From Spironucleus salmonicida (lineage: Eukaryota): DNA of 64,000 nucleotides. Under the pieces are notes generated by a model that saw nothing but the letters and a program-made list of their open reading frames with translations, had not been told where the DNA came from and searched no databases. Below, in pieces: positions 16,380 through 57,226 of this stretch. The DNA lies in contig NC_090597.1 of NCBI RefSeq assembly GCF_000497125.1, positions 1,127,797-1,191,796 on the forward strand. Reading direction: 5' to 3'. The translations under genes were made by a program, and so were the position numbers. Position 1 is the first letter of the stretch. The number at the start of each line of letters is the position of its first letter.

Positions 16380-16496
16380 GCGGACTGCTGGAAAGATATC
16401 TATGCTATAATGAATAATATTTACTTTATAATTTTCTCGCGGTATATTTTTGAAATTACTAGATATTATATAATATATACCGAAATATTTACCTAA

Positions 16497-16814: not shown

Positions 16815-16972
16815 ATCATCTAAGATATTATCATTTAATTTTTTGGATAGTGGCTGTATTTCAAGGCCTTTTAGCGTAGTTTCTATAATTGAAATATTAG
16901 AGAGTCTACGCAACCAATCATGTACACTATTTTTATATATATGCAGTTCTTTATATCTCTACTTGTTACAAA

Positions 16973-17269: not shown

Positions 17270-17278
17270 TCAATTCCT

Positions 17279-17866
17279 TCATTCAGCCCTAAGTCCTTCC
17301 TCCACAACACGTCTTACGTAGCCATACCCAGTACGACAAAATCCACCTATGATACCTCTCTTTAACACATCCCGGTCTAGCTTTTCACCACGGGCAAGAT
17401 TAACGGCTACCTATCCGCAGATGCTTCCAGCAACTCCCCATATAAACTCATCTGTATAAGATGGTCTTCTTCTTCCGTTCGCGTTAGCCGACATCTTGCT
17501 TCCATATCCAGATACTACTGATCGTATAAACTAGTTCAAGCCGTGATCTGTAACCTTACTCCAGTTAAGTGGCGTGCCAACTACTTTAGATAGTGCGATA
17601 TCTACGAGGCAGTCAATAAGAGCCTCATTAAAGGAATTAACAACTCTCCACTCAGAGTGAAACCTACTGAAGAATAATTCTTGGGCTGCAGCTGGTACTA
17701 TTTCCGGGACGAGCACGGCGGGACTGAGCCTTGGGAGATCGTATGATAATTTGACCGGGTTAAGGAATGTAGGCGTATTCTTGAATGATGAAAGGGAGTC
17801 AGAAATATATCTAGTGGCAGCTGTTGCAGTTGCATCTGCAAGTGTATGTTTCGTAAAATTAAGCAT
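17279..17866 (-). CDS. Hypothetical protein, copy of 12985-13572
   Basis: Mirror copy in the inverted repeat. Confidence 0.75.
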
Positions 17867-18082
17867 TGTGGAAGGGAATTTTTAAGTAAATAGACGCTTA
17901 ATATATATAAGTTGTAAACCCATACATAATATACAATGCTGGGGTATACAAATTATAGCAGCAGCAATACGATTTCAATCAATTTATTCGAACGATCTCA
18001 TCACTAAATCTACTTATGGTAAATCGCATTGTCACAGTTATTAGGCTCTGTGCCAACCAAAATCGAGACAATGTGGCATCAC

Positions 18083-19591
18083 TCATCTGATTCTCGTATA
18101 TTCCTATTTGCCCCTTCTGACAAACCAAACTATCAACCCAACTATCAGAGTGCACAAAAGCAGGCACCCGGTTACCGAAATCCCAATTATCCATCCCAAG
18201 GACAGGCCGGAGCTAGAATTTCCTCCCGATGGGACGCATAGCAAATTGCTCATGTCACGTTGATAACCTGACGCACAGAGACTGCAGTTATGATCCTCAT
18301 CTAAACTATACCCCTTCAAACACGAACCACACTGATTTATCGTCGAGCCGCTACAGTTAGCACAATTCTCGGTTGTGCCACCACAGTAGCAGGCGGTGGT
18401 GATTGTTTATATAAGAGGCCCATCTACTGGGCAGAAATTTACAACTGGGTCTATTGTAAGATCCTCGTTCTGTCGGCAAAACTGTCCATTTTATAACTTG
18501 ATTGTGCAGATCTTGACGCAAACCCCGGTTATATCTAGCTAGAACCCATCTCGGCATTTACGACAGCTATCTATCGAGTTCCCACAGTCCACGCACTAAA
18601 CATCGAAGCAGGTCTCGTTACTGACGCAATTACCGAGAGGCCCAACAACTGGAAACACTCCTGCGCATTTCGTACACGTCCCGTCCAAATTTAGCCCATA
18701 TCCAATCAAGCAGTACCCACAGTGATCGCTGTTGCTGGAGCAGTTCCCGCAGTTCCCGGTCGTATCTGATCCGCACGTACAAACCTTGGATGCCAAGTTG
18801 ATGCTCGACTTGGGTGAGCAAATAACACAAAACCCGCCCTCCAGATGGTACCCATCCGTGCACGTGTCACAGGTGATGATTGGGAACGGGAGTGTGGTAT
18901 GGGTACATGTTTTACAGCTCTTGATACCGCACTCCTGACAGTGCAGTCCGCCATTCTGGATGAAGAACCCATCTAGGCAGGTTGTGCAGGTCGTCGGAGC
19001 TGGAACCTCAGTTGTACCCATGTTAATCGTACACTTGCCGCAATTCGCGAAGCATGGCGTGCAGCTGTTGCCTGTGTTTAACGTGAACGTCAGCTCGCAC
19101 TAATCACACTTTTTCGGGTCCGCACAGGTTAGGCAGTCATCGGGGCAGTTGAACTCGATACAGCTCTTACCGTCTGGAGAGGTGAAGCCCTTCTTGCACT
19201 TGACACACTTATGGGTATTGGAGTCGAGCTCAAAGTTTATGTGACATGTGTTGCACAAGTTTTTATCGCAGGAGACGCAGTACTGGACCGCCTGCTTCCC
19301 GCAGATGCAGCCGATAGCTGGCGTAGAGTTGGAGCAGGCGATGCACTGGGCGCTGGCGGTCACGTAGGTACCGCTAGGGCAGTTCTCTACGCAGGTATTG
19401 GTGCTCAGGAAAAGGCCAGAAGCACACTCAGTGCAGGTGTTGGCCTGCGCGCATTTGAGGCACCCCGGGAGGGAGGATGGTTTGGAGGTGGTGCTGCAGA
19501 CGCAGGGAGATATTGAATTGCAACTAGTACAAATTTTGCTGTGGCAATACTCTTAAATAGAGCAATTATCTGTTGTAGTGCATGCTGACAT
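18083..19591 (-). CDS. Cysteine-rich membrane protein (CXXC repeats), intact copy
   Basis: MSACTTTDNCSIQEYCHSKICTSC... (alternative ATG at 19600); CXXC throughout; TM GWIIGISVTGCLLLCTLIVGLIVWFV then RRGK. Confidence 0.85.
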
Positions 19592-29285: not shown

Positions 29286-30170
29286 ATGAACTTACGAGGT
29301 TTCAGAAAACTATTACTCTTAGCGACAAAATCTGTACTTAAAAATGATTTAACATTTCAAGATGTTTTTACATCTTATCCAAACTTACCTACTCCTGTTA
29401 CACCTTCCTAGCCGTAGCCTAAAAATTCGTCAATATACTCTGTTATTTCTATATAATCATAAATCTAAAATTCTTCTAGATTATCTAATAAGTCATCTTA
29501 ACCAATAGTGTAATATAAGTCTTCTCCTAAGACGCCTTAACCTAAAAATTATTTGAAAACTACCTTTTTAAATAAACTACAGTAACAAATATCATAAATT
29601 CTATTTCAACATTTCCATAATGCAATTCTTCCTAAGCCGTTTGCTAATGAGCAAACATTTTCACTTTATATTTCGGCACTATTAACCTTATCTCACTATA
29701 AAATTTACACGGCAAAAAATTTAAACTCATAATATGAATCGCAATCTCTAACTTAGTTTTCGTTATAAAATTTTTTACAGCCAATGTTTAGCAGGTAGCA
29801 GACTAAGGATCTTCTAAAAATAGCTACAGCAGCAGATAAAATTTAGCTAGGTTAAGAATTTGGAATTTCTATAGATTAGCTAGACGAAATAGAAAATTGG
29901 ATTCAATATGCTTTTTCTGTATAAGTTGATAGTATAAATAATAAAACTCCAGATAATGATAATGAGAGTGTGTATGTTGATGATAATTTTGATGATTTTT
30001 TGTTTTTTGAAGAGTAAGACTTTAACGAAACATAACTAAATATTATTGCTCGCAACATAACTATTACTTAACAGAATCAAATTGTTAAGAAAAGTGTTAT
30101 TTATGAGGAAAATAACGTAGATCCATTTAGTAGAAAAAAAGGTAATAGAAGAAGTAGAATTATGAAGTGA
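29286..30170 (+). CDS. Hypothetical protein (294 aa)
   Basis: ATG 29286 in frame with AAG TGA ending at 30170; acidic and basic C-terminal patches. Confidence 0.65.
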
Positions 30171-30830
30171 GTTATATCTAGTACTCATTTGTTTTATTTT
30201 TATTATTAATTATGATTAATTTTATAGTATTATAACATATAACAAAACCTAACATTATATATTTTAGGCTTTCTTGACAATAAATTATCCTGCTTAACAA
30301 AGAAAATAATAGTCCTATTCAATGAGTATATGAATGGGTTACCATTACGCTTAATTTATTTACGACTACTATTATACAATTTAGTTAATGAGATTAATTA
30401 ACATATTTTGATAAAGGTGATCGCAAAACTTTACATTAGATATATTTCAATATTTAGATAAAATACTTCATAGCAAATTAAAATATTTATATAACTATGT
30501 TTTTAACAAAGATCTATTAATATCGCATTTATGGGCAAATATCATTATAACCATAGGTATATTTATTATTTTGCTATTCCAATTAGCCTAAAAACGTATT
30601 TAAGATTAAATAAGAACTAACTGCTTTAATAATTAGAAAATATAATATTATAAATGCTTTCATTTTTAAATGTGAATTAAAAGTGCATTATAGACTTAAG
30701 ATAAAATAATCCCTAAATTGTGGTATGAATAAACCTTTCTAAAGGAGAGTATAAGCAATGTTTTTAACATTTTAATCTAATTATATATCATAATTATTAT
30801 ATTTTACTTATGCTTTCCCTTTTACATATA

Positions 30831-33293
30831 ATGACCAAACCTTCATAAGATACTGAGATCAAAAAAGGTCACACCGGTGACTACGTCATTAAGAAAACGA
30901 AGACCGAGTTGAGCGAGATGAGGTTTCCCAACCGATTCATAGTGGAGGACTACGCCGACGGCGACAACTCGGTCGTCCAGATCAACCCCACGAAGTTCGA
31001 CCAGCTGGAGTTGTTCCAGGACGACATCGTAGAGATTCGCGGCAGGTTCAAGAAGTTCACCCACGCCATGGTGACGCCCAACCCCAGCCTGGACCCGACG
31101 AAGATTCTGATGAATAAGTCAGTGCGCAAGAACGCCAACGTCAACCTCGGCGACATCGTCTCCATCCACGCCGCCCCGGAGGTGCAGCAGGGCGCCCGGA
31201 TCAAGATCCTGCCCTTCAACGACGATGTGGCCGGCTACACGGAGGACTTCTTCGACACGCACATCCGCCCGTTCTTCAAGGACAAGTTCCGCCCCATCAC
31301 CGAGAACGACACCTTCATCATCAACGAGGGCCCCAAGCCGATCGAGTTCAAGGTGGTCCTCGTCGACCCCTCCCCGGTGTGCATCGTCGCAGAGGGCGTG
31401 GAGATCTTCACCGAGGGCGACCCGATCTCCCGCGAGGAGGACGAGAAGACCCGCAAGGAGATGATCGGCTACTCGGACCTCGGGGGCATCAAGAAGGAGC
31501 TGCAGCAGATCCGCGAGATGATCGAGCTGCCCCTCAAGCACCCCCAGCTCTTCGAGAACCTCGGCATCAAGCCGCCCCGCGGCATCCTCATGCACGGACC
31601 ACCGGGCTGCGGCAAGTCCTCCATCGGGCGCGCCATCGCCAACGAGACCGGCGCCTTCTTCCTGCTCATCAACGGCCCCGAGATCATGTCCTCCATGGCC
31701 GGCGAGTCCGAGAAGAACCTCCGCTCCGCCTTCGAGAAGGCCGACGAGGAGGCGCTCGCCCGCGGCTGCGCCATCATCTTCATCGACGAGATCGACGTCA
31801 TCGGCGGCTCCCGCGAGGAGTCCAAGGGCGAGGTCGAGAAGCGAATCGTGTCCCAGCTGCTCACGCTCATGGACGGCATCAAGCCCCGCTCCAACGTGCT
31901 GGTCCTCGCCGCCACCAACCGGCCCAACGCCCTGGACGCGTCCCTGCGCCGCTTTGGCCGCTTCGACCGCGAGATCTGCCTGTCCGTGCCTGACATCGAC
32001 GGCCGTCTCAGCATCCTGAAGATCAAGACCAAGAAGATGCGCCTCGCCGAGGACATCGACTTCGAGTACCTGGCGGACAACACCAACGGCTTCGTGGGCG
32101 CCGACATCGCGCAGCTCTGCACCGAGGCCGCCATGCTCTGCATCCGCGAGAAGTCCGAGATGATTGACTTCGAGGAGGCGAACCTCCCCGCTGGCATGAT
32201 CGACTCCATGTTCATCGAGATGGCGCACTTCAAGACCGCGCTGAACTCAATCAACCCCTCCACGCTGCGCGACACGGTCGTGGAGATGCCCAAGACCACC
32301 TGGGACGACATCGGCGGCCTCCACGAGGTCAAGAAGAACCTCAAGGAGCTCATCCAGTACCCGATCCAGTACGCCGACCAGTACGAGCGCCTCGGCATCG
32401 ACCCCTCCCGCGGCTGCCTCTTCTTCGGTCCACCCGGGAACGGCAAGACGCTCCTCGCGAAGGCCATCGCGAACGAGTGCCAGTCCAACTTCATCTCCGT
32501 CAAGGGCCCCGAGCTCATGTCCAAGTGGGTCGGCGAGTCCGAGCGCGGCGTGCGCCAGATCTTCGACAAGGCCAGGCAGGCGCAACCCTGCGTGCTCTTC
32601 CTCGACGAGCTCGATTCGATCGCGAAGCACCGCGGCGGGGGAGGCGGCGGCGAGGGCGTGACGGACCGCATGGTGAACCAGCTGCTCACTGAAATCGACG
32701 GCGTGGGCGCCAAGAAGTCCGTATTCGTCATCGGGGCCACCAACCGACCTGACACGATAGATCCCGCCCTCATTCGCGGCGGGCGACTCGACCAGCTCAT
32801 CTACATCGGCATTCCTGACTATGATGGCCGTTTTGGTATTCTTTCGGCTGCTCTCCGAAAGTCAAAAATCGAAGACGGTATAGACCTTCAAAAAATAGCA
32901 CAAGCAACTGATGGATACTCGGGTGCAGACCTTAGCGAAATCTGCCAGAAGGCAGTTTAGTTTGCGATTCGCAACAGCGTCCGGAAATTCAATGAGGGAA
33001 TGGCGGCATGCGACGGCGATATGGAGGCGGCAAGGAGGCTAGAGACAGAATTTCAGAGCGGTGTTATCTAAAAAGAAGACTTTGTTAACGCGGTAAGGGA
33101 ATCCCGCTAGAGTGTATCGTCCAAGGATTTGATAAAGTATGAGGCGTTTAAGGAGATGTTCTGCGGGGGCGCGAGCAAGGGATCAAGTTCCAACGAAAAA
33201 ATCGTGAATTTCGACTTCGAATCCGTAGGGGCTCTGCTGAAACGGAAGCCCCAAGGCGGTAAAAAGGTCCTCAAGGACGACGAGATGTTCTGA
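30831..33293 (+). CDS. CDC48: CDC48/p97/VCP AAA+ ATPase, paralog A (820 aa)
   Basis: MTKPSQDTEIKKG...; N domain; D1 GPPGCGKS/IIFIDEID; D2 GPPGNGKT/VLFLDELD; reads through TAG 32958 to ...KDDEMF*. Confidence 0.95.
30852..32836 (+). repeat. Left arm of 1985-bp inverted repeat (shared CDC48 core)
   Basis: x maps to 75605-x; only two differences noticed (Ile/Val codon in EGDP[I/V]SREE; synonymous ATT/ATC in EMIDF). Confidence 0.95.
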
Positions 33294-33321
33294 GCTTATT
33301 ATATTATGAATAAATTAAAAT

Positions 33322-34281
33322 TCACGCCTCGGTGTTTCCGATCTAGCAGCTTCCGTTGGCCTGTTCCGAAATGCAGACTGTATCAGGGTCTGTGGGGACG
33401 ACGTTTTGTTGCTTTTTCTCTCCGAGCCACTCAGCTACGATGTACAGCACTACGCTACCGAGCATCCCGAAGCCGATTAGAATCTGCCACCATACAAACT
33501 TGCTCTTGAAATGCAAAACATCGACTGGGAATGTGAAGACGGGCACCAAAACGCTACACATCATGAAAAACACAGCATTGCTTCTTCCAATCACGTACAA
33601 ACCGAGGAAAATATAAAAAGCAGCAATTATTCCATACAAAACCAGAAGGCCAATGCCCCCAGCATTTGCTGCAACGAAAAGCGACGTCTCCAGACTCACG
33701 CAAAGCACCACACTTAAAAGCACGCCACTCAGGCCCATTTTACTCATATACTCGAAAGTGCTCATCTAGCTGCCGAATTTCTGCATCATAACGCTGCTAA
33801 GGCCGAAGAGAAAAGCTCCTAGAATGCCTAAAATGGAGCCTGTAAGCTTCGTTCCTGAGTAGTCAGTACCAGCAAACCCAGCAGAAAATCCCATGGCTAA
33901 TAAAACTGCGACAATATGGAGAGCTGTAAAACGGTTTTTGATGATACATAGTGAGAAAATTAGCGAAGCTGGCATCGCAAGCGTCTAGAAGAGCGAAACT
34001 GAGGATACGGATGTGAGAGGAAATGCGTAAACAATACATGCTGTACCAGCAAAATCTACTACTCCATTAAGTAAAGGAAAAATGCACTATTTCCAGTGCT
34101 TGTGCGAGCTAGGGAAAACTACCAGAATAGCCTAGAAAAAATAAAAAGTAAGCGTGGAGAAAAATGGCATAGATAGTGAATATGATGTATCTACTTGCTT
34201 TTAAATTATTCCAAGAGATGAATTTAGAATAGCAAGAATAAGTCCAAGTAAAAAAGTCACGGCGGTCTAAGCAAATCTCAT
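33322..34281 (-). CDS. DMT/EamA superfamily transporter, SLC35F-like
   Basis: About 10 TM segments; DFAGTACIVYAFPLTSVSSVSLFQTLAMP and GSILGILGAFLFGLSSVMMQ resemble SLC35F1/2. Confidence 0.75.
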
Positions 34282-35036
34282 TTGTGAAGTGTATGAATAC
34301 ATATATATGATAATAATATTAAATTAATCATTAAGTCTCATCAAAACTTAAAAAATATATAAGGTGATTCTAAATATAGCTAAGTATAATGGGTAAAAAT
34401 TATTGACATACCTTATTATATAAAAGATCTGTATGTAATTTGTATATAATAAAGCTTTATTCTCAAAGAAATATGTGTGGTTTTTTGGTATTATTAATAA
34501 ATCATTCAAATTGTGGTTTTATAATAATACAACTAATACGTATAATTTTAAGTAATTTCTGATTAGTGTCAACTTCTTTTTGTAATACTATATTCTAATA
34601 AAATAATAAATAATATTGATAGGAAACAAAATATTTTATTGAAATAATAATGTATGCTTAAACAGTTTGGCTAAAAATTTACAATATAAAATTTATGAGG
34701 TATTTAATTTCTATTTTAAAAATTATAATTGTGTTAGTTTCTCTATTATTATTGAAATGTAAGTATATAAATTATCCAAAGGATTAAAGTTATTTCGTGA
34801 CATATTAATATATATGAATTTTGAAATTTTTTCAAATTATATACAATGCCGTATATTATAATAGGAATAATATACAAATTATATATTAGTATATAATATT
34901 ATTTAAATATTAAATTTTCATTTAGAAGTTATATTTGATAATTGGTTAAATATTATAGTACATAATTATGATTTTGTCCACCAATTTTAATATATATATA
35001 TATATCTTCATTAATAATATAAATAAAACTTAAAAA

Positions 35037-36803
35037 ATGATTACTCTATTAACAGCATAATTTGGATATTGTTCCCCAACAGAAATGAATTTTTATACTA
35101 CTAAGTTTCCTTAATTCATTACAGAATGGTGGAATAGTAACCCCAATATATTTACGTCTTTGTTATCGTCTCCTAAGTTATAAGAGACATTTCAATTGCA
35201 AAAATAACAAAGAATTATTGTTGTTGGTACTTTACTGTAATATTTAGATGAAGATTTAATGAATATTAATAATATCATAAAAGATTATAAGTAAATTATA
35301 TAGATTCCCCTTCCAGATGATTCTACGATGGCTTAATATTTTGCCGCACTCAAAAGTATAAAGTTAGAGGATAATGATGTAATTTTACTTCCAGTATTTA
35401 ATTGTAGGAGTCATGATAATTTTAATCCGACCGAGACTCTTTATGATAGAACAAATAATTATTATAAAGGTTCTAATTAGCTTCCCTTTTCACGAATATA
35501 ATCGTTAGAATAAATTTAAGAGAGTATATAAGGATATAGAGATTTATTTACTCACACGGTAACTACCAGTTAAACTTATCATAGTTTTAATTTATAAAAA
35601 CTTTCAATGTAGAATATTTTAATTATCACATCTGCACTGGATATGACTTCATCACTACAATTTAATTCTCTCTAATTCTGTCATATATCTCCTAATTACT
35701 AGCCTTAAACATCTATTGATAGTTGCTTTATAGCTGTTCCAATAGGAATGGGTAACAGAGGTATTAATGGAACGGGCAATATAGGAAACGGATTTGATAT
35801 CGTGACTAAATTTTATCTTCAATTTGAAAGAAATTAGTTACAGATTCATCATATTTTTAATGCATTAAAAAGCGCAATTTCATTAAAAAAATAAAATAAT
35901 TATTAAATAGAAGGATTTGGTAACGGAATGACGGATTTATCTTCCATAAGTCATATTATAGAAATAAATTAATAAGATGATTCTAATAACATTTTTGATG
36001 TTATAACAGCTGGAAATATTAAATCTGGTTAAATATTATAACTTAAGACATTTTAAATTTTAAGAATTTATGTCACTGCTCGTGGTTCCGTTGATGAATT
36101 TAATCCTATTTATGAAAATACATATAAAACTTCGTTACCAAATAATTAAGACGCTATGTTGAAGTATCAAAATATTAGATTCTATATTTGTTAAAAGCTT
36201 GGTACACTATATATACCTTAATATATAGGATAGCTACGAGGACATAGAGGATCATATTAGTATCTTATTTAAAGCTCATAATTATGGGGATAGCATATTT
36301 AAAATGATGTAATAGTGTGGTTTTCATTTGAATCAGACATAGTTAAAGTATAGCATGAAATAGCTTAAAACTTATAAATAGACAATGATCTAACTGTTTC
36401 ATTATAGTTTATAGGGTATACAATTGATGTATCTTTGTTAAGTATTTCTGATCCAAGATATGCAACAAAAAATACAGCATTGTATTTTTAAACTGAAGCA
36501 CGACATATTTATTCTGCGTGTGTAACTAAAACAATTGTTACAGTAAAAAAGCATAATATTGAATTATATGGTGATGATGTTTTGTCTATATAATTTGAAA
36601 ACGGAGAAACATGTAATATTTATTTTTGCATTACAGAACAGTCTATTCTTAATGTAATGCAACATGACTGTGCTAGGTCTTATGAATTTTATGTTGATTA
36701 ATATTCATCCGCAAGAGTTTTTTATGCGGGTATTGCTATAGGTATATTCTTTTTAATCTATTATTTAATAGTAATAATTCTGGTTTCCCGCTATAAATCT
36801 TGA
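35037..36803 (+). CDS. Hypothetical type I membrane protein (588 aa)
   Basis: MITLLTAQFGYC... in frame with TGA 36801; C-terminal TM (VFYAGIAIGIFFLIYYLIVIILV) then SRYKS. Confidence 0.7.
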
Positions 36804-36944
36804 GTAATATTCAACATATTAGTATTAAGTATTATTGAATGAAAACCATTTAACCAACCGTAAGTGAGTCTATTTTAGATTTTTTTAGACATACAATATT
36901 ATATTAAGTTAAATTTATTATTACTCTCTTCTTTCCGCAATAAA

Positions 36945-37403
36945 ATGCCCTAACATAGTTTCCTTAAGACGTCAAAAGCATATGACACTTCATATGCACA
37001 AGGCAACTCAATTACTTATACTCCAACTCCATCTGTTGAAGAACGTTAATTTTGGTCATAATCTTAATACAACGAAACAAAACCGTTTGGCATGAATTTA
37101 GCATCTACTACCTTAACTACGTATGTTGAAAAACCATCAGCTTGCATTCATAATTGCACATACCATGCAAAGGATATTTTATGTAAATCACGTCCCATTA
37201 AATTAGATACTTCAACAAGACTCCCATCTAGCTACAATTAAACAGCTCTTAATGAGGCTCCTAGCAACTCTGCATTTGCAGAGAATAATCACAATCTTAA
37301 TGTTACTTTGCCTTTTGTTAGAGATCCAGCAAAGAGATTTACTACTGAAAAAGTAAAAACTTAAAGATATGTTAAAGATATAAAACCGGTTGGATGGTTC
37401 TGA
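36945..37403 (+). CDS. Hypothetical protein (152 aa)
   Basis: MPQHSFLKTSKAYDTSY...IKPVGWF*; CTTTCCGC upstream. Confidence 0.7.
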
Positions 37404-37489
37404 GAAAATTATTATCTCTATTTTTATTATTTAAATTCAATTATATTTTAGTACAGTATAATAATTAACTTTTTCACTTCAGCAAACAA

Positions 37490-37900
37490 ATGGATTTAAC
37501 AACAATTGACTTAACTAGCGCAAATTAAATCCCAAATGATCTTAAGTTCAACGCGGAGCTGGACTTCGTGAACCAGCTGGCCTACGACGAGTACGTGGTG
37601 TACCTGCTGGAGCACGGCTTCTTCGAGCAGGAGGCGTTCATCCGCTACGTGCGCTACCTGAACTACTTCGCCCGGCCCGAGTACGCACGCTTCCTCCGCA
37701 ATGCCCGCTCGGTGTTCTACCTGGAGCGCCTAACGGATGAGACCTTCCGGCGCAACCTGGCTGTGCAGATCACCATCGGCGAGGGCAGCGTGGCGGAGGA
37801 GCACACCTACTGCAACTTTCTGGACTACTGCCAGCAACAGAGCCAGGTGAGCCAGAACTACTTCGAGGCCAAGGAGCGTGCCGTCGAGCAGGGCGAGTGA
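37490..37900 (+). CDS. MED31: Mediator subunit Med31/Soh1
   Basis: KFNAELDFVNQLAYDEYVVYLLEHGFFEQEAFIRYVRYLNYFARPEYARFL matches RFEVELEFVQ.LA...YL.YL...YF....FI.YL.YL.YW..PEY. Confidence 0.85.
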
Positions 37901-37962
37901 GTGCGTGCCAGTGTGGAGCGGACGTTCCGGGCCTTATATATCTGCATCCGCGTCCCCCCAGA

Positions 37963-38175
37963 ATGTTCCGCCAAGAGGACGTGCAGGTCTTCCTCCGCCG
38001 CAACTTCCCCGGACTCAAGCTGGCGCACACGACGAAGCCCCTGCTCGCGGACCTCGCGAACCTGGTCGCCGCCGCCGTGCTGCTGCGGACCGTGCCGTCC
38101 GTGCGCAAGCGCCAGCGCGTGGAGGCGGGCCCGGCGGACGTGCAGCGGGCCATCGACCTGGTGCTTCCCGAGTGA
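37963..38175 (+). CDS. Minimal histone-fold protein (H2B/CENP-W-like, 70 aa)
   Basis: VQVFLRRNFPGLKLAHTTKPLLADLANLVAAAVLLRT...RQRVEAGPADVQRAIDLVLPE has the helix spacing of H2B IYKVLKQVHP...REIQTAVRLLLPGE. Confidence 0.6.
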   Translation: MFRQEDVQVFLRRNFPGLKLAHTTKPLLADLANLVAAAVLLRTVPSVRKRQRVEAGPADVQRAIDLVLPE

Positions 38176-38255
38176 TCGTAAGGCCTCACTGCCCGGGCCG
38201 TACGGCGCCCGTCGCTCTGTAGCCGCCAGGACTCAGCGCAGAACCGCAAACACAC

Positions 38256-38534
38256 TCACTCCATGGCCTGCAGCACCGCGAGCAGCACGTCCAGCTGGAT
38301 CGGCGCGTCGGCCTCGCGCGGGAACTTCCTACCGAGCCGCCTGAACTTGAAGCGGTCGGTGTCCTGCCGCATGCGGTGCAGCTTGGACGTGCACTGGGAC
38401 AGCGTGCGGTGGGGCAGGCAGTTGCCGATATCCGTCCAGTCGATATGGCCCGTGGGGAACACATGCGTCTCCACGTAGCGGAACAGGGTCTGCTCGTCCT
38501 CGAGGGGCCAGCAGGGCGCGCGTGTGAAGGCCAT
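38256..38534 (-). CDS. Single-repeat Myb/SANT protein, GC-rich copy 1
   Basis: MAFTRAPCWPLEDEQTLFRYV...IDWTDIGNCLPHRTLSQCTSKLHRMRQ; start set by alignment with 25233-25517. Confidence 0.9.
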   Translation of the reverse strand: MAFTRAPCWPLEDEQTLFRYVETHVFPTGHIDWTDIGNCLPHRTLSQCTSKLHRMRQDTDRFKFRRLGRKFPREADAPIQLDVLLAVLQAME

Positions 38535-39247
38535 TTGTAGCGGAGCGGCGTGTTTTCCGAGGGCAGTATATCCGGGTATCGCGGCGTAATACGCGACTCT
38601 AGGAATCTGGCGGCAAGCAGACGGCCGCGCAATGCGATATACGACGGATATTGTCGGGTTCCAGAAACGGTTTCTGGCGCGGTTGCGGGTATTGTGCCCC
38701 AATATGCGAGGTGGAGCGGGATGGACCAGAGATAATTCTGCATATCGCGGCGGAATACGCAGGTAGCAGTTCCACCAGTTCCAAAATGCACGGCTCGCGG
38801 GCGGGCGCAGCAGCAGAGAATCCCGCCCCAGTTTCAGTCCAAGTTCTAGTGAGAAATTGACAGTGCTCAGGTTAATATAATGGTAATGATGAGAAATCAA
38901 CCAGAGCCTAAATTAAAGATAAAATTCAAATTCAGAGCAGAGAAACTGATTAACTAAAGATAATTATTAATTTTGCTCCTTCAAATCATATTGTATTGGT
39001 CATTTGTGCAGAGACATTCAATCAGTTAGTTTAGACTGCCACTAAACCTTAGTTTTTGATTCACAATTACAATAAAAATAATTAGCTTACTATATAACAT
39101 ATTAGTCGATTAGCTATTTAATAAACTTAGTTATACTTCTTTATTTTATTTGTGTATAAATTTATATACAACTATCTCGATATTAAACTTATTTTCATTA
39201 AGTTATCATTATTTTATACAATATATACTTATAATATTTAAATCAAA

Positions 39248-41524
39248 ATGACTACTCAATTATAATACTATAAGTAAAGTTAAATAAGTCATCTACAAAC
39301 AACTTTAGATAAGTAAGTTAGTGATATTAATTAAGTAATAGACTTTATAGCAACTCAAAGTTATATTTTTATGAATCTCAAGAATGGTAAACTATTGCTT
39401 TCATAGAACAACACTTAACCATAATTTATAGACTAGTAAATTTTTAATCACAAATTTATAAAAATATTCATTAGTGACACCATAATATGTGTAGGTAGCG
39501 ATATTTTAGACGGCATAGAAGTTTACAGTGTAAAATAATATCAAATTAAGGATATGTTATTGAAAGAGAAAGGTATTGAAAAAGTTCAGATAAAAATTTA
39601 ATCTGTATAAATGACAGAAGATATGTAACATTTAGTTGTATTTGGCGAAATGAAATTTTATATACTGAACTTGAAGTAAACATTCCTTAAAATAAAAAAT
39701 AATAATATTACTATTTAGCTAGAATCATAAATATCTTTATTCTAAGTATTTTACAATAGGTATATCATTATTTAGTCTGAAAATATATAATAGATTCTAA
39801 AAATTTCTTTTTAAAATTAAAGTTTTGAGTTAATTAATCTACCCAAACTACAAATGTACAAATAAATTACTTGTGTAAATAAAGAAATTTTTGGTTTAAC
39901 TGATTAGGGAGTTGTTTAGTTGAATTTTACTTTTTAATAATAGTTTATTAATACGAAATTTACTCCAAAATTAATAATAACGTCATAAAATATAGAATCT
40001 ATTCATTCAATAGATGGTTTTTTAGGAATTACTGACAATGAAAATTTCAAAATATTTGATGATTCTTAGCTTTAAATTTTTTAAACTACTTAACTTTTTA
40101 CCAAACTGACATTCTTTTAAGATACATTTTTATTTTTGTAATTAAATTTTACTATTACACTATTTACAAAGCTATCAACTCATTTAATTGTTCATTAATT
40201 AATAAAAAATAATCTTGTAAATCATGCTCTTAAGTATAATTCGAGCAAAGATCTTGTATATTCTATATTAGCATTTTAATAATTTGATCAAAACAAGCTT
40301 AAAAGTGCATTTGAAAGCATACTTTTATGTTTACAACATGGATTTCCAATCGGCCTTGTCGTAAAGAAAATTTATAATAATATTATTTTTCTTGAATAGG
40401 TATTAGATCATATTTACTACTAAACAAATTAAACCACTATTGTTAATCTATTTCTTTGTGTTTTAATTAAAAATTAAAAATTCAATGAATTCACAAAATT
40501 GGTTCGTGAACTTGAGTAAGGTGATTTTAACCCTAGCCTTAATATTGATAATTTATTAATTTTATGCCAAGAGACCTAGTAGCTAAGCTTTTTAACTAAG
40601 GAGATATAGTTCAGTTTAGGATCATAAATGGAAGCAGTAAAGATTTTGGTACTTTAAAAATAGTATAACATGGTATTAAATTTTTTAGTGTGTTGTGAAG
40701 AATAGTATTTAAGCACATAAATATTATTATAATTTGGTGAAGAATTATTATAAAACTCAGACTGGAAGCTATTTTAAAAGGTAGTGTTAAATTTGCTAAC
40801 AGCTACTCCTCCTTCAAAATTAATCTCATTGGAACAATTTTATTCGAACGAAGATACATTTTGGTGTTAAGTAATATCTTATAGATCATAGAAATTCCCT
40901 TAAATCTATCCAATTGATATCTCGATATTTTTCCCGATTTTCGAAAACCATATTTAGTAGTTAACTGATATATACAAGCAGGTTATAAACCAAGCGATTT
41001 CAGGCATATTAAAGATAACTTTATCGGAAACAAGCATTTTAACATATTTTTAATTGCTAATTTTAACAAAAAGCGATGATGAAATCGTTCAATAATTACA
41101 AGGAATATCGTTATTTTAGGAGTTAAATTATGAATAGTTACTTAATTTATTTATTAATATTCAGTTCGTAAAATGTGTTATTTTCTGTTGCTAAAAACTA
41201 AAATTCGAAGTCTTATTAATTTAATATTATCTATTGTAAGGAGATATAGAATAAGCAATTTAAGTAGGCGAATTTAAACATAAATTAGAGTTATTGAAGG
41301 GTTGCGCTAAACAAGATGACTATCTTTAATAATTGATATAGACAGTTGACTTTAGAGAGTTCAATTAAGATCTATTAATAAATATAATATTAGGTGAGAA
41401 TAAACATATAAATTATATACAGGTATAAGATTTACTTCAAATACATATCAAATCAGATTAAATTAGCAATCAATGGTAATAAGAAGGCTAAGATCCGTTT
41501 GAGGTGCTGAGGAATATGCTGTGA
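39248..41524 (+). CDS. Large hypothetical protein (758 aa), possibly beta-propeller plus alpha-solenoid
   Basis: ATG 39248 in frame with TGA 41522-41524 (...QDPFEVLRNML*); interior partly read; family not established. Confidence 0.6.
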
Positions 41525-41724
41525 ATTTATTAGGATTTTATAATGCTTAAAATATAATACGATAAATTAATATTATTACAAACCAGGTATTTATGTTAAT
41601 TAATATATTAATAAATATATGAAATATAATAATATATGTTATGTAAATAAAAAATTTATTTATTATAATTATTATATATAGAAAATATGTATGCGCATTT
41701 TTCCAAAAAAACTTTCCTCATTAA

Positions 41725-42084
41725 ATGGAAGCACTTTTATCATCCTCAGTTTTGATTACCCAGTAGCCTATCAGAGCATTAATTTATGAAATAGATATGG
41801 AAAATTCACATGCGAATTTTTAAATTCAGTCATCGTTTGCAGAAGTTGAAATCCACAATCGCACACTGGACGAACTGAACAGGGACTAGTATGGAGGAAA
41901 CCAGGACAGAAATATTTCAAACGCTCTCTAAAAGATTAGAGAGGGTTAAACCACATTAAATTATATGCAGTCCACTCACTACAATGTTGAAATTAAGCAT
42001 TTTGAAGATGCCGATGAGGACTAAATTAAGCTTTACATCGAAAAGTAGCGATAAAAGAGCTTAACTATGGGTAAGAACAAGTGA
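41725..42084 (+). CDS. Hypothetical protein (119 aa)
   Basis: MEALLSSSVLITQQPIRALIYEID...MGKNK*, AAG TGA. Confidence 0.65.
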
Positions 42085-42100
42085 CATTTTTTTATATCAT

Positions 42101-42171
42101 GCACCACTAGTATAGCGGTAGTATGGCACCCTTCCAAGGTGTATGTCCGGGTTCGACTCCCGGGTGGCGCA
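42101..42171 (+). tRNA. tRNA-Gly(TCC)
   Basis: GCACCAC TA GTAT-AGCGGTA-GTAT G GCACC-CT TCC AA-GGTGT ATGT CCGGG-TTCGACT-CCCGG GTGGCGC A; one A3:C70 mismatch. Confidence 0.92.
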
Positions 42172-42248
42172 CATTTACCACTACTGTTCTAACTCTAGAA
42201 CATCTAAAATAAAACAGTACACTTATTACATAAAATTACCGCATTTAA

Positions 42249-44756
42249 TCAGAAAAATTCATCATCGTCTTTCTTCTTTTTAGGTACTGCTTCCTCCTTG
42301 ACAGCCGCAACGGCCACCTTCTTGCTACCCTTAGCCACAAACTTGAAACCCGCAACTTTGGGATTGTTGACATCACCACCCTGGCTGGCATCGCAAAACT
42401 GCATTTTGAACGCTTCATATTTTTTCAAATCTGAATCAGAAACACTCTATCTTGATGTCCTAACTGCCTGCTCGAAATTCCTCACAGTGAGTATTCCACT
42501 GCCAAATTGCTCCTCGAATTATCTACTTTTCCTCTCAAATTCTTCGATATCGACCTCTTCATTGGCGTCTTCTTTCTATTTTTTCTGTAAATTCAGCATC
42601 GACATATTAGCATTAAACTGCCCAACTGACTCTCTTATAGCCATTTAAACAGCTTTCTGACAGATTTCGCTCAGGTCAGCGCCAGAATATCCTTCCGTTG
42701 CGTCTGCTATTTGTGCCAAATCAACGTTTTCTTCCATTTTTGACTTCCTCAAAGATGCCTTCAAAATGCCAAAACGGCCATCATAGTCAGGAATGCCGAT
42801 GTAGATGAGCTGGTCGAGTCGCCCGCCGCGAATGAGGGCGGGATCTATCGTGTCAGGTCGGTTGGTGGCCCCGATGACGAATACGGACTTCTTGGCGCCC
42901 ACGCCGTCGATTTCAGTGAGCAGCTGGTTCACCATGCGGTCCGTCACGCCCTCGCCGCCGCCTCCCCCGCCGCGGTGCTTCGCGATCGAATCGAGCTCGT
43001 CGAGGAAGAGCACGCAGGGTTGCGCCTGCCTGGCCTTGTCGAAGATCTGGCGCACGCCGCGCTCGGACTCGCCGACCCACTTGGACATGAGCTCGGGGCC
43101 CTTGACGGAGATGAAGTTGGACTGGCACTCGTTCGCGATGGCCTTCGCGAGGAGCGTCTTGCCGTTCCCGGGTGGACCGAAGAAGAGGCAGCCGCGGGAG
43201 GGGTCGATGCCGAGGCGCTCGTACTGGTCGGCGTACTGGATCGGGTACTGGATGAGCTCCTTGAGGTTCTTCTTGACCTCGTGGAGGCCGCCGATGTCGT
43301 CCCAGGTGGTCTTGGGCATCTCCACGACCGTGTCGCGCAGCGTGGAGGGGTTGATTGAGTTCAGCGCGGTCTTGAAGTGCGCCATCTCGATGAACATGGA
43401 GTCGATCATGCCAGCGGGGAGGTTCGCCTCCTCGAAGTCGATCATCTCGGACTTCTCGCGGATGCAGAGCATGGCGGCCTCGGTGCAGAGCTGCGCGATG
43501 TCGGCGCCCACGAAGCCGTTGGTGTTGTCCGCCAGGTACTCGAAGTCGATGTCCTCGGCGAGGCGCATCTTCTTGGTCTTGATCTTCAGGATGCTGAGAC
43601 GGCCGTCGATGTCAGGCACGGACAGGCAGATCTCGCGGTCGAAGCGGCCAAAGCGGCGCAGGGACGCGTCCAGGGCGTTGGGCCGGTTGGTGGCGGCGAG
43701 GACCAGCACGTTGGAGCGGGGCTTGATGCCGTCCATGAGCGTGAGCAGCTGGGACACGATTCGCTTCTCGACCTCGCCCTTGGACTCCTCGCGGGAGCCG
43801 CCGATGACGTCGATCTCGTCGATGAAGATGATGGCGCAGCCGCGGGCGAGCGCCTCCTCGTCGGCCTTCTCGAAGGCGGAGCGGAGGTTCTTCTCGGACT
43901 CGCCGGCCATGGAGGACATGATCTCGGGGCCGTTGATGAGCAGGAAGAAGGCGCCGGTCTCGTTGGCGATGGCGCGCCCGATGGAGGACTTGCCGCAGCC
44001 CGGTGGTCCGTGCATGAGGATGCCGCGGGGCGGCTTGATGCCGAGGTTCTCGAAGAGCTGGGGGTGCTTGAGGGGCAGCTCGATCATCTCGCGGATCTGC
44101 TGCAGCTCCTTCTTGATGCCCCCGAGGTCCGAGTAGCCGATCATCTCCTTGCGGGTCTTCTCGTCCTCCTCGCGGGAGACCGGGTCGCCCTCGGTGAAGA
44201 TCTCCACGCCCTCTGCGACGATGCACACCGGGGAGGGGTCGACGAGGACCACCTTGAACTCGATCGGCTTGGGGCCCTCGTTGATGATGAAGGTGTCGTT
44301 CTCGGTGATGGGGCGGAACTTGTCCTTGAAGAACGGGCGGATGTGCGTGTCGAAGAAGTCCTCCGTGTAGCCGGCCACATCGTCGTTGAAGGGCAGGATC
44401 TTGATCCGGGCGCCCTGCTGCACCTCCGGGGCGGCGTGGATGGAGACGATGTCGCCGAGGTTGACGTTGGCGTTCTTGCGCACTGACTTATTCATCAGAA
44501 TCTTCGTCGGGTCCAGGCTGGGGTTGGGCGTCACCATGGCGTGGGTGAACTTCTTGAACCTGCCGCGAATCTCTACGATGTCGTCCTGGAACAACTCCAG
44601 CTGGTCGAACTTCGTGGGGTTGATCTGGACGACCGAGTTGTCGCCGTCGGCGTAGTCCTCCACTATGAATCGGTTGGGAAACCTCATCTCGCTCAACTCG
44701 GTCTTCGTTTTCTTAATGACGTAGTCACCGGTGTGACCTTTTTTGATCTCAGTCAT
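42249..44756 (-). CDS. CDC48: CDC48/p97/VCP AAA+ ATPase, paralog B (835 aa)
   Basis: MTEIKKG...; same D1/D2 motifs; reads through TAA 42645 to ...PKKKKDDDEFF*. Confidence 0.95.
42769..44753 (-). repeat. Right arm of 1985-bp inverted repeat (shared CDC48 core)
   Basis: Reverse complement of 30852-32836. Confidence 0.95.
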
Positions 44757-44844
44757 TTTAGAGGTTCTGTATAATCTTGAATTATATCATAACTATATAT
44801 AAGGTAGGATTTATTTGGAGTTCTTAAATGAAATGATATAAAGT

Positions 44845-45588
44845 TCATATTTTCACAATATCACAGCTACGTATAGTATCCTTTATGTTCAATATCATGT
44901 AGCTGCCTTATCCTATCCAAGAGCTTTTAAAAATAGTAGATTTTTCATCATTTATTATAGTATCTTTTTCAGTAGGACTTAAAAGATATGATGCTCCTAT
45001 CTATTCTTAGATTTAAAATGAATTTTCTTAAACAAGTAGCATATATGGCTTGTTATTATTCTTTAGTTACTATTTCAATCGTCTTCTACCAAGAATACTA
45101 TTTTTCCCCTATTTTATCAGTTTTAATGGTCCCATATTCATTTTTACCTCCTCACTACTATTAAGATTTACACGTATTATATTTTAACATATTTTCTTTT
45201 AAACTATTTCTTTAAAATCACTATCAGATAAAAATGGATTTTTCTCTTAAAATTTATCAATAGTTAAAATGCAACTAGGATAAATTTTATTTCGTTTTAA
45301 TGATGATATTATTAATGGTAATTGCTGCTTTTGCTAGAACAACCCATTAGCAACTAAGACTTTCATTATTAAAAAGTAAACCTTTTATAATTATTGTTAG
45401 TTTGCTAGTTGTAGAGTAAGTGATTAATAAAGCATAATATCTAAGTAAATTATAAATGACTATTTATAGCCAAGTAAATTTTTTACTTAAGCTTATACAT
45501 TAGTTAATTATCTAATTTATTATTAACATAATATTTAAAGCTTCAAAACGTTTATACTTATAAAGGAATATTAAATAGCAAAGAACAT
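44845..45588 (-). CDS. Possible hypothetical protein (247 aa)
   Basis: Frame open with TAR=Gln, but two + frames are also open here, so strand and start are uncertain. Confidence 0.3.
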
Positions 45589-45614
45589 ATAAAAAGTAAT
45601 CTTTATTACTTCCT

Positions 45615-45974
45615 CTTAAGTTCAACGCGGAGCTGGACTTCGTGAACCAGCTGGCCTACGACGAGTACGTGGTGTACCTGCTGGAGCACGGCTTCTTCGA
45701 GCAGGAGGCGTTCATCCGCTACGTGCGCTACCTGAACTACTTCGCCCGGCCCGAGTACGCACGCTTCCTCCGCAATGCCCGCTCGGTGTTCTACCTGGAG
45801 CGCCTAACGGATGAGACCTTCCGGCGCAACCTGGCTGTGCAGATCACCATCGGCGAGGGCAGCGTGGCGGAGGAGCACACCTACTGCAACTTTCTGGACT
45901 ACTGCCAGCAACAGAGCCAGGTGAGCCAGAACTACTTCGAGGCCAAGGAGCGTGCCGTCGAGCAGGGCGAGTGA
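45615..45974 (+). pseudogene. MED31: MED31 copy lacking the native first 17 codons
   Basis: Repeat begins at the LKFNAEL codons; nearest in-frame ATG is 45456 in unrelated AT-rich sequence. Confidence 0.65.
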
Positions 45975-46036
45975 GTGCGTGCCAGTGTGGAGCGGACGTT
46001 CCGGGCCTTATATATCTGCATCCGCGTCCCCCCAGA

Positions 46037-46249
46037 ATGTTCCGCCAAGAGGACGTGCAGGTCTTCCTCCGCCGCAACTTCCCCGGACTCAAGCTGGCGC
46101 ACACGACGAAGTCCCTGCTCGCGGACCTCGCGAACCTGGTCGCCGCCGCCGTGCTGCTGCGGACCGTGCCGTCCGTGCGCAAGCGCCAGCGCGTGGAGGC
46201 GGGCCCGGCGGACGTGCAGCGGGCCATCGACCTGGTGCTTCCCGAGTGA
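46037..46249 (+). CDS. Minimal histone-fold protein, copy 2 (Pro>Ser variant)
   Basis: Identical to 37963-38175 except TTKP>TTKS. Confidence 0.6.
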   Translation: MFRQEDVQVFLRRNFPGLKLAHTTKSLLADLANLVAAAVLLRTVPSVRKRQRVEAGPADVQRAIDLVLPE

Positions 46250-46329
46250 TCGTAAGGCCTCACTGCCCGGGCCGTACGGCGCCCGTCGCTCTGTAGCCGC
46301 CAGGACTCAGCGCAGAACCGCAAACACAC

Positions 46330-46608
46330 TCACTCCATGGCCTGCAGCACCGCGAGCAGCACGTCCAGCTGGATCGGCGCGTCGGCCTCGCGCGGGAACT
46401 TCCTACCGAGCCGCCTGAACTTGAAGCGGTCGGTGTCCTGCCGCATGCGGTGCAGCTTGGACGTGCACTGGGACAGCGTGCGGTGGGGCAGGCAGTTGCC
46501 GATATCCGTCCAGTCGATATGGCCCGTGGGGAACACATGCGTCTCCACGTAGCGGAACAGGGTCTGCTCGTCCTCGAGGGGCCAGCAGGGCGCGCGTGTG
46601 AAGGCCAT
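46330..46608 (-). CDS. Single-repeat Myb/SANT protein, GC-rich copy 2
   Basis: Same protein as 38256-38534. Confidence 0.9.
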   Translation of the reverse strand: MAFTRAPCWPLEDEQTLFRYVETHVFPTGHIDWTDIGNCLPHRTLSQCTSKLHRMRQDTDRFKFRRLGRKFPREADAPIQLDVLLAVLQAME

Positions 46609-47740
46609 TTGTAGCGGAGCGGCGTGTTTTCCTAGGGCAGTATATCCGGGTATCGCGGCGTAATACGCGACTCTAGGAATCTGGCGGCAAGCAGACGGCT
46701 GCGCAATGCGATATACCACGGATATTGTCGGGTTCCAGAAACGGTTTCTGGCGCGGTTGCGGGTATTGTGCCCCAATATGCGAGGTGGAGCGGGATGGAC
46801 CAGAGATAATTCTGCATATCGCGGCGGAATACGCAGGTAGCAGTTCCACCAGTTCCAAAATGCACGGCTCGCGGGCGGGCGCAGCAGCAGAGAATCCCGC
46901 CCCAGTTTCGCTACAGCTTTCGTGGTAGATCGAACGCTTGGTTATAATACCATAATATAATCTCATGTGGATTATATCTAAAGGAAACTAACAATAATAA
47001 TTATTAATACTATTTATTATAGACTGCTGATGCGATATTAATGAATAAAATAGACTAATATAATTTACCAAGAATTGTTTATTATGCATTAAAGCAGCTA
47101 ATTTTCTGATACACAAAATAAAAACTATTATTTAGAGTGCTCATTTCCATTACCCATATTAAGAAAATAAACTAAAGCAGAGGTGAAATGTAATTGTTAT
47201 CGATTTTATGCAATTCTTATATTTGAATATGAAGTTTATACTACAATTTAATGATAATAAACCAGAAAACTCATCAAATCTCGCTATATTTTCTATCTAT
47301 TGTCATAATAGCCTATTTAATCAATTAAAATACCTTTTTTTGTAATCTATTCAACATGTTACTTTTAATAATTATATTATAATTACGGATTTAAATGCAC
47401 TATTTACTAATTATTATATATTAAATATATAATATTACCTCATTGAATATAAAGTTTTCAAAAGTTTAAAATAATAATTTATAATAAAAATCTAAATCAT
47501 AAAAGAGAGCAATAATATTTTCTCTTTTTACAAAAACAACTAAACTACATAAGGATCTATCTAAGTATTGGTTTTAGAACAATTTATTTTTATTTTGTTA
47601 ATAATATAAATTTAAGTTTTAATATTGTAGAATAGTTTTACTAACACCATTTATAAATATAATATATAACATCAATAAAACGTGTTCAAATTATGTATAA
47701 TATAATTTTTCAATATATACTAATACTTTTTATTTTACAA

Positions 47741-55687: not shown

Positions 55688-57226
55688 TCACGTCACTATA
55701 TAATTAAATTAGTCATACGATCAAATTTCATCAGGGTTAATAATTTTAATTTTATGTGTCACGTGAATGCGCTTAGGAATAATACTAACTACAAACATAA
55801 TAACACAAAAAATTGATGAGCAGATAACTGATAGAGATGAAAACATAATATATGTGCTCCTTAAACTCTATTCCACTGAGTTTGATACAATTTAGTCTTA
55901 AAAATCATCATCTTCATTATACACATATATTACAACATATTTATGGTCTCTTAATGGTTCTATAATAGCAAACTCATTATTAGAAATATTATTTATAATT
56001 TTATTCATGGAAGAATTATACAATAATGAGAAATCATAAGTATCTTTAAAAAGTGTTATTCCAGATGAAAAATCTTCAGGAATATTAAAATAACCTACTT
56101 TGAATGTATACAAATTAGTTTATTCCAAAACACATTTTGAACTTGTCATTTAAAATTAAAATTCTATAGTTTTGCTGAATATTAAAATATCAAGGCCACT
56201 GAAGCAAGAAGGCTTAAACACACCTACTTATTATATTATTAACTAATCGCCTATCTGGAAATAAAATATAATATAGCGGTCTGTTAATTATATACGTTAC
56301 ATTTAGGTTAATATAAATAAACAATCTTCTTCATTTTCTGTAACAGCGCATACCATATTTCCGTCAGATTTGAAAATATTTTCATTAATTTTTCCTGAAA
56401 TATAATGATGAGTGTCTTTAATAACCATTTTTATAATAAAATTAGCTTTTGAAAAATCTGCAGCAAGCATAAATTTGTCTAATTCACCTTTATTTCTTTA
56501 AAACTCTAAAGCCATATAAGATGAAAAAATTGTAGTAGTAAGTCCTGTGAAAATATTTGGTTGTTTTACAATTACAATATCAGAAGTTGTATAATTTTAT
56601 GAGATGTGTATTCCATTCTATAGGCCAGTTAACATCAAAATAGCCATATCTACATAAGGTATTTCAGACGTTGCAGTAAAACAATAAGAAGTAGTTTTTG
56701 AATCAAACTTTTCAACACCTTTATCGAATTCGGATTTACCCTCCCTATCTGAATGAATCTTTAAGATTGCTTTTCTTTCAGTCAAGTCCTTTCCAATATT
56801 AGCCTAATCTATAACTATACATGATTAGTCTCCTTCAACAGTTAAATGAACCCCTGGAGTAATACTATTCAGCTTCTTTCGTATATTCAAAACACTTCCA
56901 ATGCTGAAAACTGTTGTCAGTTATGGAGAGTCTATAACAACAGTACTCGAAATAACGTCATCGTAGGCAGCACATTTTGTGCCACAATTTATTTTTAGTG
57001 AAATAGTTTTATTGTAACTGAAACCAGTAAATATTTATCCAATATTTAATGATGAATCTGGGAACTATAGTTAAACCAAAACTCCTGTTGGAAAATCGCA
57101 AAGAACTCCAGATTCACGGTTAAGCTAAATCTCCAAATGGTCCGAGAAAAGATTTAGTTGAGAACGTTATGTGTAACAGTCCATGGTAGATACGACACTA
57201 TACACTGCCAATAAATATATATACAT
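55688..57226 (-). CDS. Hypothetical type I membrane protein, tandem paralog 1 (512 aa)
   Basis: Signal-like MYIYLLAVYSV, DCYTQRSQLNLF...LCDFPTG, C-terminal TM. Confidence 0.75.

Follow-up and report, generated by a model that had tools for sequence, protein, structure and literature searches.

The CDC48 locus

This report concerns two genes for the essential AAA+ unfoldase CDC48/p97 that lie tail to tail, 9.9 kb apart, in a stretch of 64,000 nucleotides from Spironucleus salmonicida (contig NC_090597.1 of assembly GCF_000497125.1, positions 1,127,797 to 1,191,796 of the forward strand). This whole stretch is called the window below, and all positions are counted from its first letter. The two genes, CDC48-A and CDC48-B, are paralogues. 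Since they are convergent, their promoters lie outside and their tails inside the pair. The features discussed first are the following.

30831-33293, plus strand: CDC48-A, 820 amino acids from MTKPSQDTE (table 6 translation, Pfam)
42249-44756, minus strand: CDC48-B, 835 amino acids from MTE (table 6 translation, Pfam)
30852-32836, plus strand: core, arm A, spanning codons 8-668 with the N domain, D1 and the P-loop portion of D2, 62.7% GC, GC content at third codon positions (GC3) 0.93
42769-44753, minus strand: core, arm B, 2 of whose 1985 positions differ from arm A
32837-33293, plus strand: tail A, the D2 lid and C-terminal extension, GC3 0.56
42249-42768, minus strand: tail B, the D2 lid and C-terminal extension, orthologue-like, GC3 0.44

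Translation followed NCBI table 6, in which TAA and TAG are read as glutamine, and both open reading frames (ORFs) are intact under this code. Both copies have the architecture of a CDC48/p97 type II AAA+ protein, with an N domain followed by two P-loop AAA domains with lids. Pfam matches in each are CDC48_N (E about 1e-16), CDC48_2, AAA in two stretches (E 2.5e-88), AAA_lid_3 in two stretches and a Vps4_C-like end. In a phmmer comparison of CDC48-B with the PDB, residues 21-787 match plant CDC48A (E 1.7e-276) and human p97 (about 1e-271). CDC48-A also has an in-frame ATG upstream, at 30810, which would give a form of 827 amino acids; the 820-aa form belongs to the same 90% protein cluster. 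The proteins end in KDDEMF (CDC48-A) and KKKKDDDEFF (CDC48-B). This acidic C-terminus with an aromatic end aligns with the ends of the Hexamita (EDEFF) and Giardia (EADMF) proteins and with ends of the DDLYS type, and presumably it is the putative cofactor-binding motif of p97/CDC48.

The near-identical core and its edges

The two genes contain the arms of an inverted repeat at 30852-32875 and 42730-44753 (2024 nt, 99% identity), which blastn stretches to 30838-32959 versus 44766-42646 at 98.0% identity, with 35 mismatches and 6 gap openings. In a codon alignment the two differences within the core are A/G at 31425, which changes isoleucine 199 to valine, and T/C at 32165, which is synonymous; the synonymous divergence (dS) of the core is 0.002. 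In a window that has 31% GC outside its repeats, a 2-kb match with two differences is far beyond chance.

Both edges of the core are sharp. At the 5' edge the identity begins at codon 2 of CDC48-B, and the AT-rich sequences upstream of it are unrelated. At the 3' edge dense differences set in from codon 669 (32837 and 42768), where GRFGIL is followed by SAAL in CDC48-A and by KASL in CDC48-B. The Pfam AAA match for D2 of CDC48-B covers residues 524-654 and the identity ends after residue 656, so that the part in common consists of the N domain, of D1 and of the half of D2 with the P-loop, and the free part consists of the helical lid of D2 and the C-terminal extension. The names lid and cofactor-binding for this free region are our assumption from the p97 structure. 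Near-identity is thus limited to one tract, and outside it the same pair of genes is strongly diverged, as is found in mosaic paralogues. An earlier note on this DNA, made from the sequence alone, had given the coordinates of the arms, the two differences between them, the residues at both ends of each protein and the intact state of both genes, and all of these are borne out by the alignment and the table 6 ORFs.

The tails and the age of the pair

The tails are strongly diverged. Over 149 aligned residues the proteins of tail A and tail B are 51.7% identical, and tail A is without about 16 residues that are found in tail B, Hexamita and Giardia. By the NG86 method the dS of the tails is undefined (saturated) and the nonsynonymous divergence (dN) is 0.52. 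At conserved tail residues, 33 of 78 silent third positions are identical and 45 differ, with 0.24 expected from composition. That 79 of 152 tail residues have been kept despite this turnover of silent sites indicates that both tails stayed under purifying selection.

Hexamita inflata is the closest named relative among the matches listed, at 72-77% identity. The core alone is 75-77% identical to the H. inflata CDC48 and at most 62% identical to those of Giardia, Dysnectes and Carpediemonas. Because the core is nearest to the Hexamita CDC48, it was inherited vertically and is not foreign, and horizontal gene transfer of the core was rejected on these grounds. Against the three CDC48 proteins of H. 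inflata, tail B is 56-60% identical and tail A 46%, and against Giardia the values are 38% and 40%, respectively. A homologue search with tail A returned just itself and a katanin (E 4.9e-6) from 444 candidates, by a word index whose limited sensitivity makes this result no evidence of uniqueness.

A maximum likelihood tree of the tails was built from 12 rows and 173 columns, chosen from 120 listed hits and the cluster members: tails A and B, the three H. inflata proteins, Giardia, Dysnectes, Carpediemonas, P0004, Andalucia, Cavenderia and Willaertia. A single close outgroup species was found. Tails A and B group with Hexamita in one clade (support 91/95), and the branch of tail A is six times longer than that of tail B (1.33 vs 0.22). 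The earlier note had called the genes an old paralogue pair. As regards the near-saturated silent sites of the tails this description is partly supported, but the tail tree is compatible with a duplication on either side of the Hexamita split (p-AU 0.485).

Base composition and codon choice

The two arms are GC islands in a background of about 20-30% GC. GC3 is 0.93 over the 661 codons of the core, 0.56 over the 152 codons of tail A and 0.44 over the 173 codons of tail B, and the step coincides with the identity boundary, at the same codon in both copies. In windows of 30 codons, GC3 is 0.90-1.00 over most of the core, 0.60-0.71 in its first window and 0.77 in its last; right after the boundary it falls in both copies, to 0.27 and 0.37. 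The glutamine codons show the same pattern: the core has 18 CAG, one CAA and no TAA or TAG, and each tail has TAA or TAG.

One might suppose that the core is rich in GC because it uses the codons that are preferred in highly expressed genes. According to Table 2 of the 2007 S. salmonicida survey (PMC1805757), however, the preferred codons end in A or T for ten amino acids. The preferred A/T-ending codons of this table make up 17 of 382 cases in the core; for tail A the count is 23 of 89, and for tail B it is 43 of 100. For example, the core has 45 GGC and 3 GGT, 53 GAG and 1 GAA, 27 CGC and 2 CGT, and no GTT. It also has 78 G-ending four-fold codons of the kind that highly expressed genes avoid, as given in the same survey. 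Translational selection was therefore rejected as the cause of the high GC3, since the codons of the core run opposite to the preferred set. GC3 is raised in the tract relative to the rest of the same gene, and the excess does not come from preferred codons; both are marks of GC-biased gene conversion (gBGC).

The near-identical repeats of the window as a whole (13,515 nt) have 53.1% GC compared to 30.9% elsewhere. They contain 31 of the 44 bins of 200 nt with a GC content of at least 0.55, and in all six repeat copies GC drops across both edges (e.g., at 37540, from 0.605 inside to 0.235 outside).

Evidence from public sequencing runs

The earlier note had named collapse or polishing of the assembly as an artefact that could make the cores alike. 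This possibility was checked in public runs, of which X1-X4 come from one sample and may be the source of the assembly, whereas X5-X8 come from a second study and are guessed to be RNA. The Logan contigs of X1, X2, X5 and X6 were placed on window positions 29500-42740. Such contigs are built from words of 31 letters, so they give an identical graph for either orientation of the spacer and a 2-kb arm cannot be phased.

In X1 and X2, the two DNA runs among these, a single contig of 1985 nt spans exactly 30852-32836, with no other letters. It overlaps two further contigs, one that runs into tail A (32807-37569) and one in which 32840 is connected to 42740 on the other strand, where tail B lies. 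In X1 the depth of the core contig is 23.3 compared to 10.2-10.8 in the flanking contigs, a ratio of 2.2 that corresponds to about two copies. In X2 the core depth is 198.7 compared to 145-190, without doubling, for which GC bias is suspected. The doubled depth in X1 and a protein cluster of three members argue for two CDC48 copies.

The contigs of X5 and X6 have the arm-B letters, G at 31425 and C at 32165, and otherwise leave the core unchanged from arm A. One X5 contig of 2481 nt connects the core to tail B, and contigs of tail A cover 32842-33292 (X5) and 32807-33294 (X6). At 33311 and 37414, X5 has loose ends that carry poly(A)/poly(T) and adapter, which speaks for this run being RNA. Both tails are transcribed, as seen in these two guessed RNA runs. 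The contig depths are 925.2 and 945.7 for tail B and 125.7 and 75.6 for tail A in X5 and X6, respectively, values that are unusable for ranking expression. The X5 contig of tail A has a gap of 2 nt at 32864, near the contig end, to which no interpretation is given.

Could the cores really be more different, and have been made alike by collapse or short-read polishing? The reference was indeed corrected with Illumina reads (PMC9509377, in the available part of the text), and X2 lacks a clear twofold depth. The artefact is nevertheless hardly credible. X1 and X2 share one 1985-nt node with no other letters that branches to both tails, the RNA contigs of the second study depart from arm A at just the two positions of the reference, and the core in X1 has 2.2 times the depth of its flanks. 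As DNA and guessed RNA contigs alike give the common core, both junctions and both tails, an assembly artefact is largely ruled out, and the cores truly differ at about two sites.

Gene conversion as the probable origin of the mosaic

We think that the structure is probably the result of recurrent GC-biased gene conversion between the inverted paralogues, from which the lid and C-terminal tail have escaped. By this mechanism, interlocus gene conversion, i.e., non-reciprocal homologous recombination, would repeatedly copy one arm onto the other over a fixed tract of 1,985 nt and so maintain identity in the N domain, in D1 and in the P-loop portion of D2. Upstream, the tract would be limited by the lack of homology; downstream, the D2 lid and tail would be too diverged to form a heteroduplex, and perhaps selection for two tail types, which may be functionally distinct, also keeps the tails apart. 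GC-biased repair of the conversion heteroduplex would lift the tract to its GC3 of 0.93, and the unconverted tails would stay nearer the AT-biased background. The earlier note had proposed recurrent conversion that spares the C-terminus; this proposal is supported, and the GC3 step, which that note did not contain, strengthens it.

A simpler alternative is that a single recent conversion of 2 kb, or a partial duplication, overwrote one paralogue, and that the GC content of the core reflects regional mutation bias or was a property of the donor. The two differences in 1985 nt call for no more than one recent event, and there are GC-rich islands without a partner elsewhere in the window (1-1600, 21401 and 62001-63000). 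GC-rich regions and a codon usage that neither mutation nor selection explained were also described in the 2007 survey (PMC1805757, in the part available). Such an event would explain the identity, but not the step in GC3 at a codon that both copies share, nor the taper: the donor would need to have had its step exactly at the future boundary of the tract, and GC3 tapers to both tract edges, as would be expected from a long-running process. The other repeat edges in the window coincide with GC steps too. We therefore regard a single event as an unlikely explanation.

Several observations weigh against recurrent GC-biased conversion, or at least against parts of it. The fixation of AT-to-GC changes is unpolarised, as there is no outgroup nucleotide sequence, and a mutation bias linked to recombination would look alike. 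The islands without a repeat partner in the window make up 13 of the 44 GC-rich bins, and the other inverted repeat of the window (11342-14819 and 16032-19506, 99.77% identity) has just 43.6% GC. In the tail tree the grouping of A with B has a support of 56/15, and constraining B to group with Hexamita changes the log-likelihood by 0.06, so that the tree allows either grouping and does not bring out the incongruence between tract and flanks that is classic for conversion. By identity alone, the cores place A and B together (99.8%). As for the read evidence, the core depth in X2 is not doubled, and X1 and X2 would not be independent of the assembly if they were its source.

If recurrent GC-biased conversion is correct, the locus would be a natural experiment within one reading frame, in which gene, promoter and expression level are in common and GC3 is 0.93 where the sequence is copied and about 0.5 where it is not. 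This contrast within the frame points to GC-biased conversion as the cause of the GC excess, which in turn would imply active homologous recombination in an organism without described sex; we know of no sexual cycle in the diplomonad host. The locus would also be a pointer to the cause of the patchy GC-rich regions with odd codons in the genomes of hexamitine diplomonads. Judging from the sequences, the D2 lid and the putative cofactor-binding tail of an essential hexameric ATPase can diverge while its motor stays identical.

A proposed tail-swapping inversion

The earlier note had also proposed that the locus may be invertible, like a shufflon. In this scheme the arms would recombine by reciprocal crossover and turn the 9.9-kb spacer around, so often that the cells alternate which promoter and N-terminus go with which tail, as a functional switch. 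The spacer contains one copy of a direct repeat that carries most of a MED31 gene, and the second copy lies beyond arm B.

37540-38835, plus strand: direct-repeat copy 1, most of MED31 and a GC-rich stretch, in the spacer of the inverted repeat, 63.9% GC
45614-46909, plus strand: direct-repeat copy 2, outside arm B, 63.7% GC

The geometry of the proposal is right. If the arms crossed over, 32837-42768 would be inverted, each promoter would have the tail of the other gene behind it, and the MED31 repeats would change from direct to inverted. The promoters lie outside and the tails inside, the arms are 99.9% identical, both tails are transcribed in the guessed RNA runs X5 and X6, and conversion between inverted repeats sometimes comes with a crossover. 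The switch itself is unsupported. A Pfam scan of 55 ORF translations (34 + 21), a part of the ORFs of the window, contained no recombinase, integrase or transposase family, and there are no short specific sites, because the sites would be 2 kb of coding homology. A swap would alter just the promoter and an N-terminal extension of seven residues, and the same products exist in either state. In addition, the X5 contig has the arm-B letters and tail B together, in agreement with the reference, although words of 31 letters cannot truly phase the arm. A second orientation was not seen, in contigs that would look alike for either one.

Occasional homologous inversions at the CDC48 pair are plausible. 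It seems quite improbable that crossovers associated with conversion flip the spacer often, so that cultures are mixtures of the two states, and a functional switch is more doubtful still, to the point of being very improbable. If such frequent flipping did occur, it would be an isoform switch in an essential unfoldase, driven by homology and free of a recombinase, in which an orthologue-like tail and a fast-evolving short tail alternate, and the MED31 repeats would toggle between direct and inverted orientation as well.

Other repeats and genes in the window

The MED31 direct repeat claimed in the earlier note was confirmed: it has 1296 nt with four differences, and the Med31 Pfam matches have E values of 7e-19 and 5e-18. 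The 5' ends of the two genes are not alike when 37490-37900 is compared to 45434-45974. In copy 1 the ATG lies 50 nt before the start of the repeat; in copy 2 this place is taken by unrelated AT-rich sequence, and the nearest in-frame methionine lies some 60 codons upstream. The gene of copy 2 may be truncated at its 5' end or have another start. The loose contig ends behind 38835 in X1, X5 and X6 correspond to 46910-46939, and the contigs of X5 and X6 reach the right flank of copy 2. The GC-rich two-thirds of the direct repeat (37900-38835 and 45974-46909) contains no clear gene, with a weak Myb-like match on the minus strand at about 38259-38500 (E 3.9e-4); contigs of the guessed RNA runs cover the 37900-38835 region. 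The repeats are interleaved in the order arm A, direct-repeat copy 1, arm B, direct-repeat copy 2, and if the two direct repeats recombined by crossover, 38836-45613 would be lost and CDC48-B with it.

A tRNA gene lies next to the CDC48 pair.

42101-42172, plus strand: tRNA-Gly(TCC), 77 nt past the stop of CDC48-B, one of two tRNAs that are the sole Rfam matches

The contig of this tRNA (76 nt) has an elevated depth, 18.7 in X1 and 383.9 in X2, which suggests that there are more copies elsewhere.

The inverted repeat at 11342-14819 and 16032-19506 has a length of 3478 nt with five mismatches and two gaps, and its outer 200 nt have 62% GC. It carries genes for cysteine-rich membrane proteins that are weakly VSP-like, and a Yip1-domain gene (14755-15819) is in its spacer. 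At 1-1600 and 62001-63000 there are GC islands with 57-68% GC, in which almost every one of the six reading frames is open in the table 6 code. When each long frame of the GC islands was compared to Pfam, no convincing family emerged; the matches were RCC1-like (E 3e-6, under the family cut-off) and Myb-like (E 3.9e-4). Finally, 55721-57226 and 57541-59055 are tandem paralogues for an unknown membrane protein, which are 76% identical over 475 nt and have a GC content of 0.28-0.30. That this pair is both diverged and AT-rich fits an absence of conversion and sets it apart from the GC-rich pairs that are homogenised.

Comparison with known systems

Shufflons and other invertible-DNA switches depend on a dedicated site-specific recombinase and short sites. 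Inversion at the CDC48 locus would resemble them in that it would swap 3' ends behind fixed promoters; the locus differs in having no short sites, and the scan of 55 ORF translations gave no recombinase.

Partial concerted evolution and GC-biased conversion are established in gene families and palindromes. The palindromes of primate sex chromosomes have inverted arms of kilobases that are more than 99.9% identical by intrachromosomal conversion, with a unique spacer and a GC enrichment that is attributed to biased repair. The CDC48 locus is like them in its kilobase inverted arms, near-identity, GC enrichment and spacer of unique sequence. It is unlike them in that its arm ends inside coding sequence, so that one part of the protein is homogenised and another is free, and in its diplomonad host. 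Families with GC-biased conversion include mammalian histones, Hsp70, yeast and Arabidopsis duplicates and ribosomal DNA (rDNA). As in these families, the CDC48 copies are converted paralogues with a raised GC3 regardless of codon optimality; in contrast to them, the CDC48 pair has an internal control in one frame, where GC3 is 0.93 on one side of a codon boundary and 0.44-0.56 on the other.

Among diplomonads, there is a likeness to identical inverted pairs of vsp genes in Giardia. These are described, in the part of PMC2996952 at hand, as ORFs that lie head to head or tail to tail at a distance of a few kb and diverge abruptly at certain points, and are called 'cryptic'. An inverted pair a few kb apart in a diplomonad, with an abrupt divergence, is also what we find here. 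However, the vsp pairs are identical over whole ORFs and flanks and are read by their authors as recent duplications (same source), whereas the CDC48 genes are housekeeping genes that are just partly identical. A literature search found nothing that links Spironucleus to biased gene conversion and nothing on diplomonad gene conversion together with GC-rich regions, and for Giardia the sole work centred on that organism invokes GC-biased conversion for rDNA (PMC10123126, as far as its available text goes). The accessible portions of the H. inflata genome paper (PMC11787283) and of PMC12669663 hold nothing specific to this pattern.

In S. salmonicida itself, 19.2% of the genome is duplicated (at least 2 kb at at least 95% identity), and the duplicated part has 44.7% GC compared to 30.7% elsewhere (PMC9509377, available part). 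The CDC48 locus fits this description, and the sequence outside the repeats of the window, at 30.9% GC, compares with the published 30.7%. In the part seen, PMC9509377 gives the correlation without GC-biased conversion as its cause, has no case of a boundary within a gene, and names gene conversion just for surface-protein genes.

In conclusion, the CDC48 pair shows a known process in an essential gene, partial concerted evolution that bears a GC-biased signature, and is a clean, sharply bounded case of it. The higher GC of the duplicated regions of S. salmonicida was already published (PMC9509377, in its available text); what the CDC48 pair adds is the step in GC3 at the identity boundary, together with a codon choice in the core that runs against the preferred A/T-ending codons.

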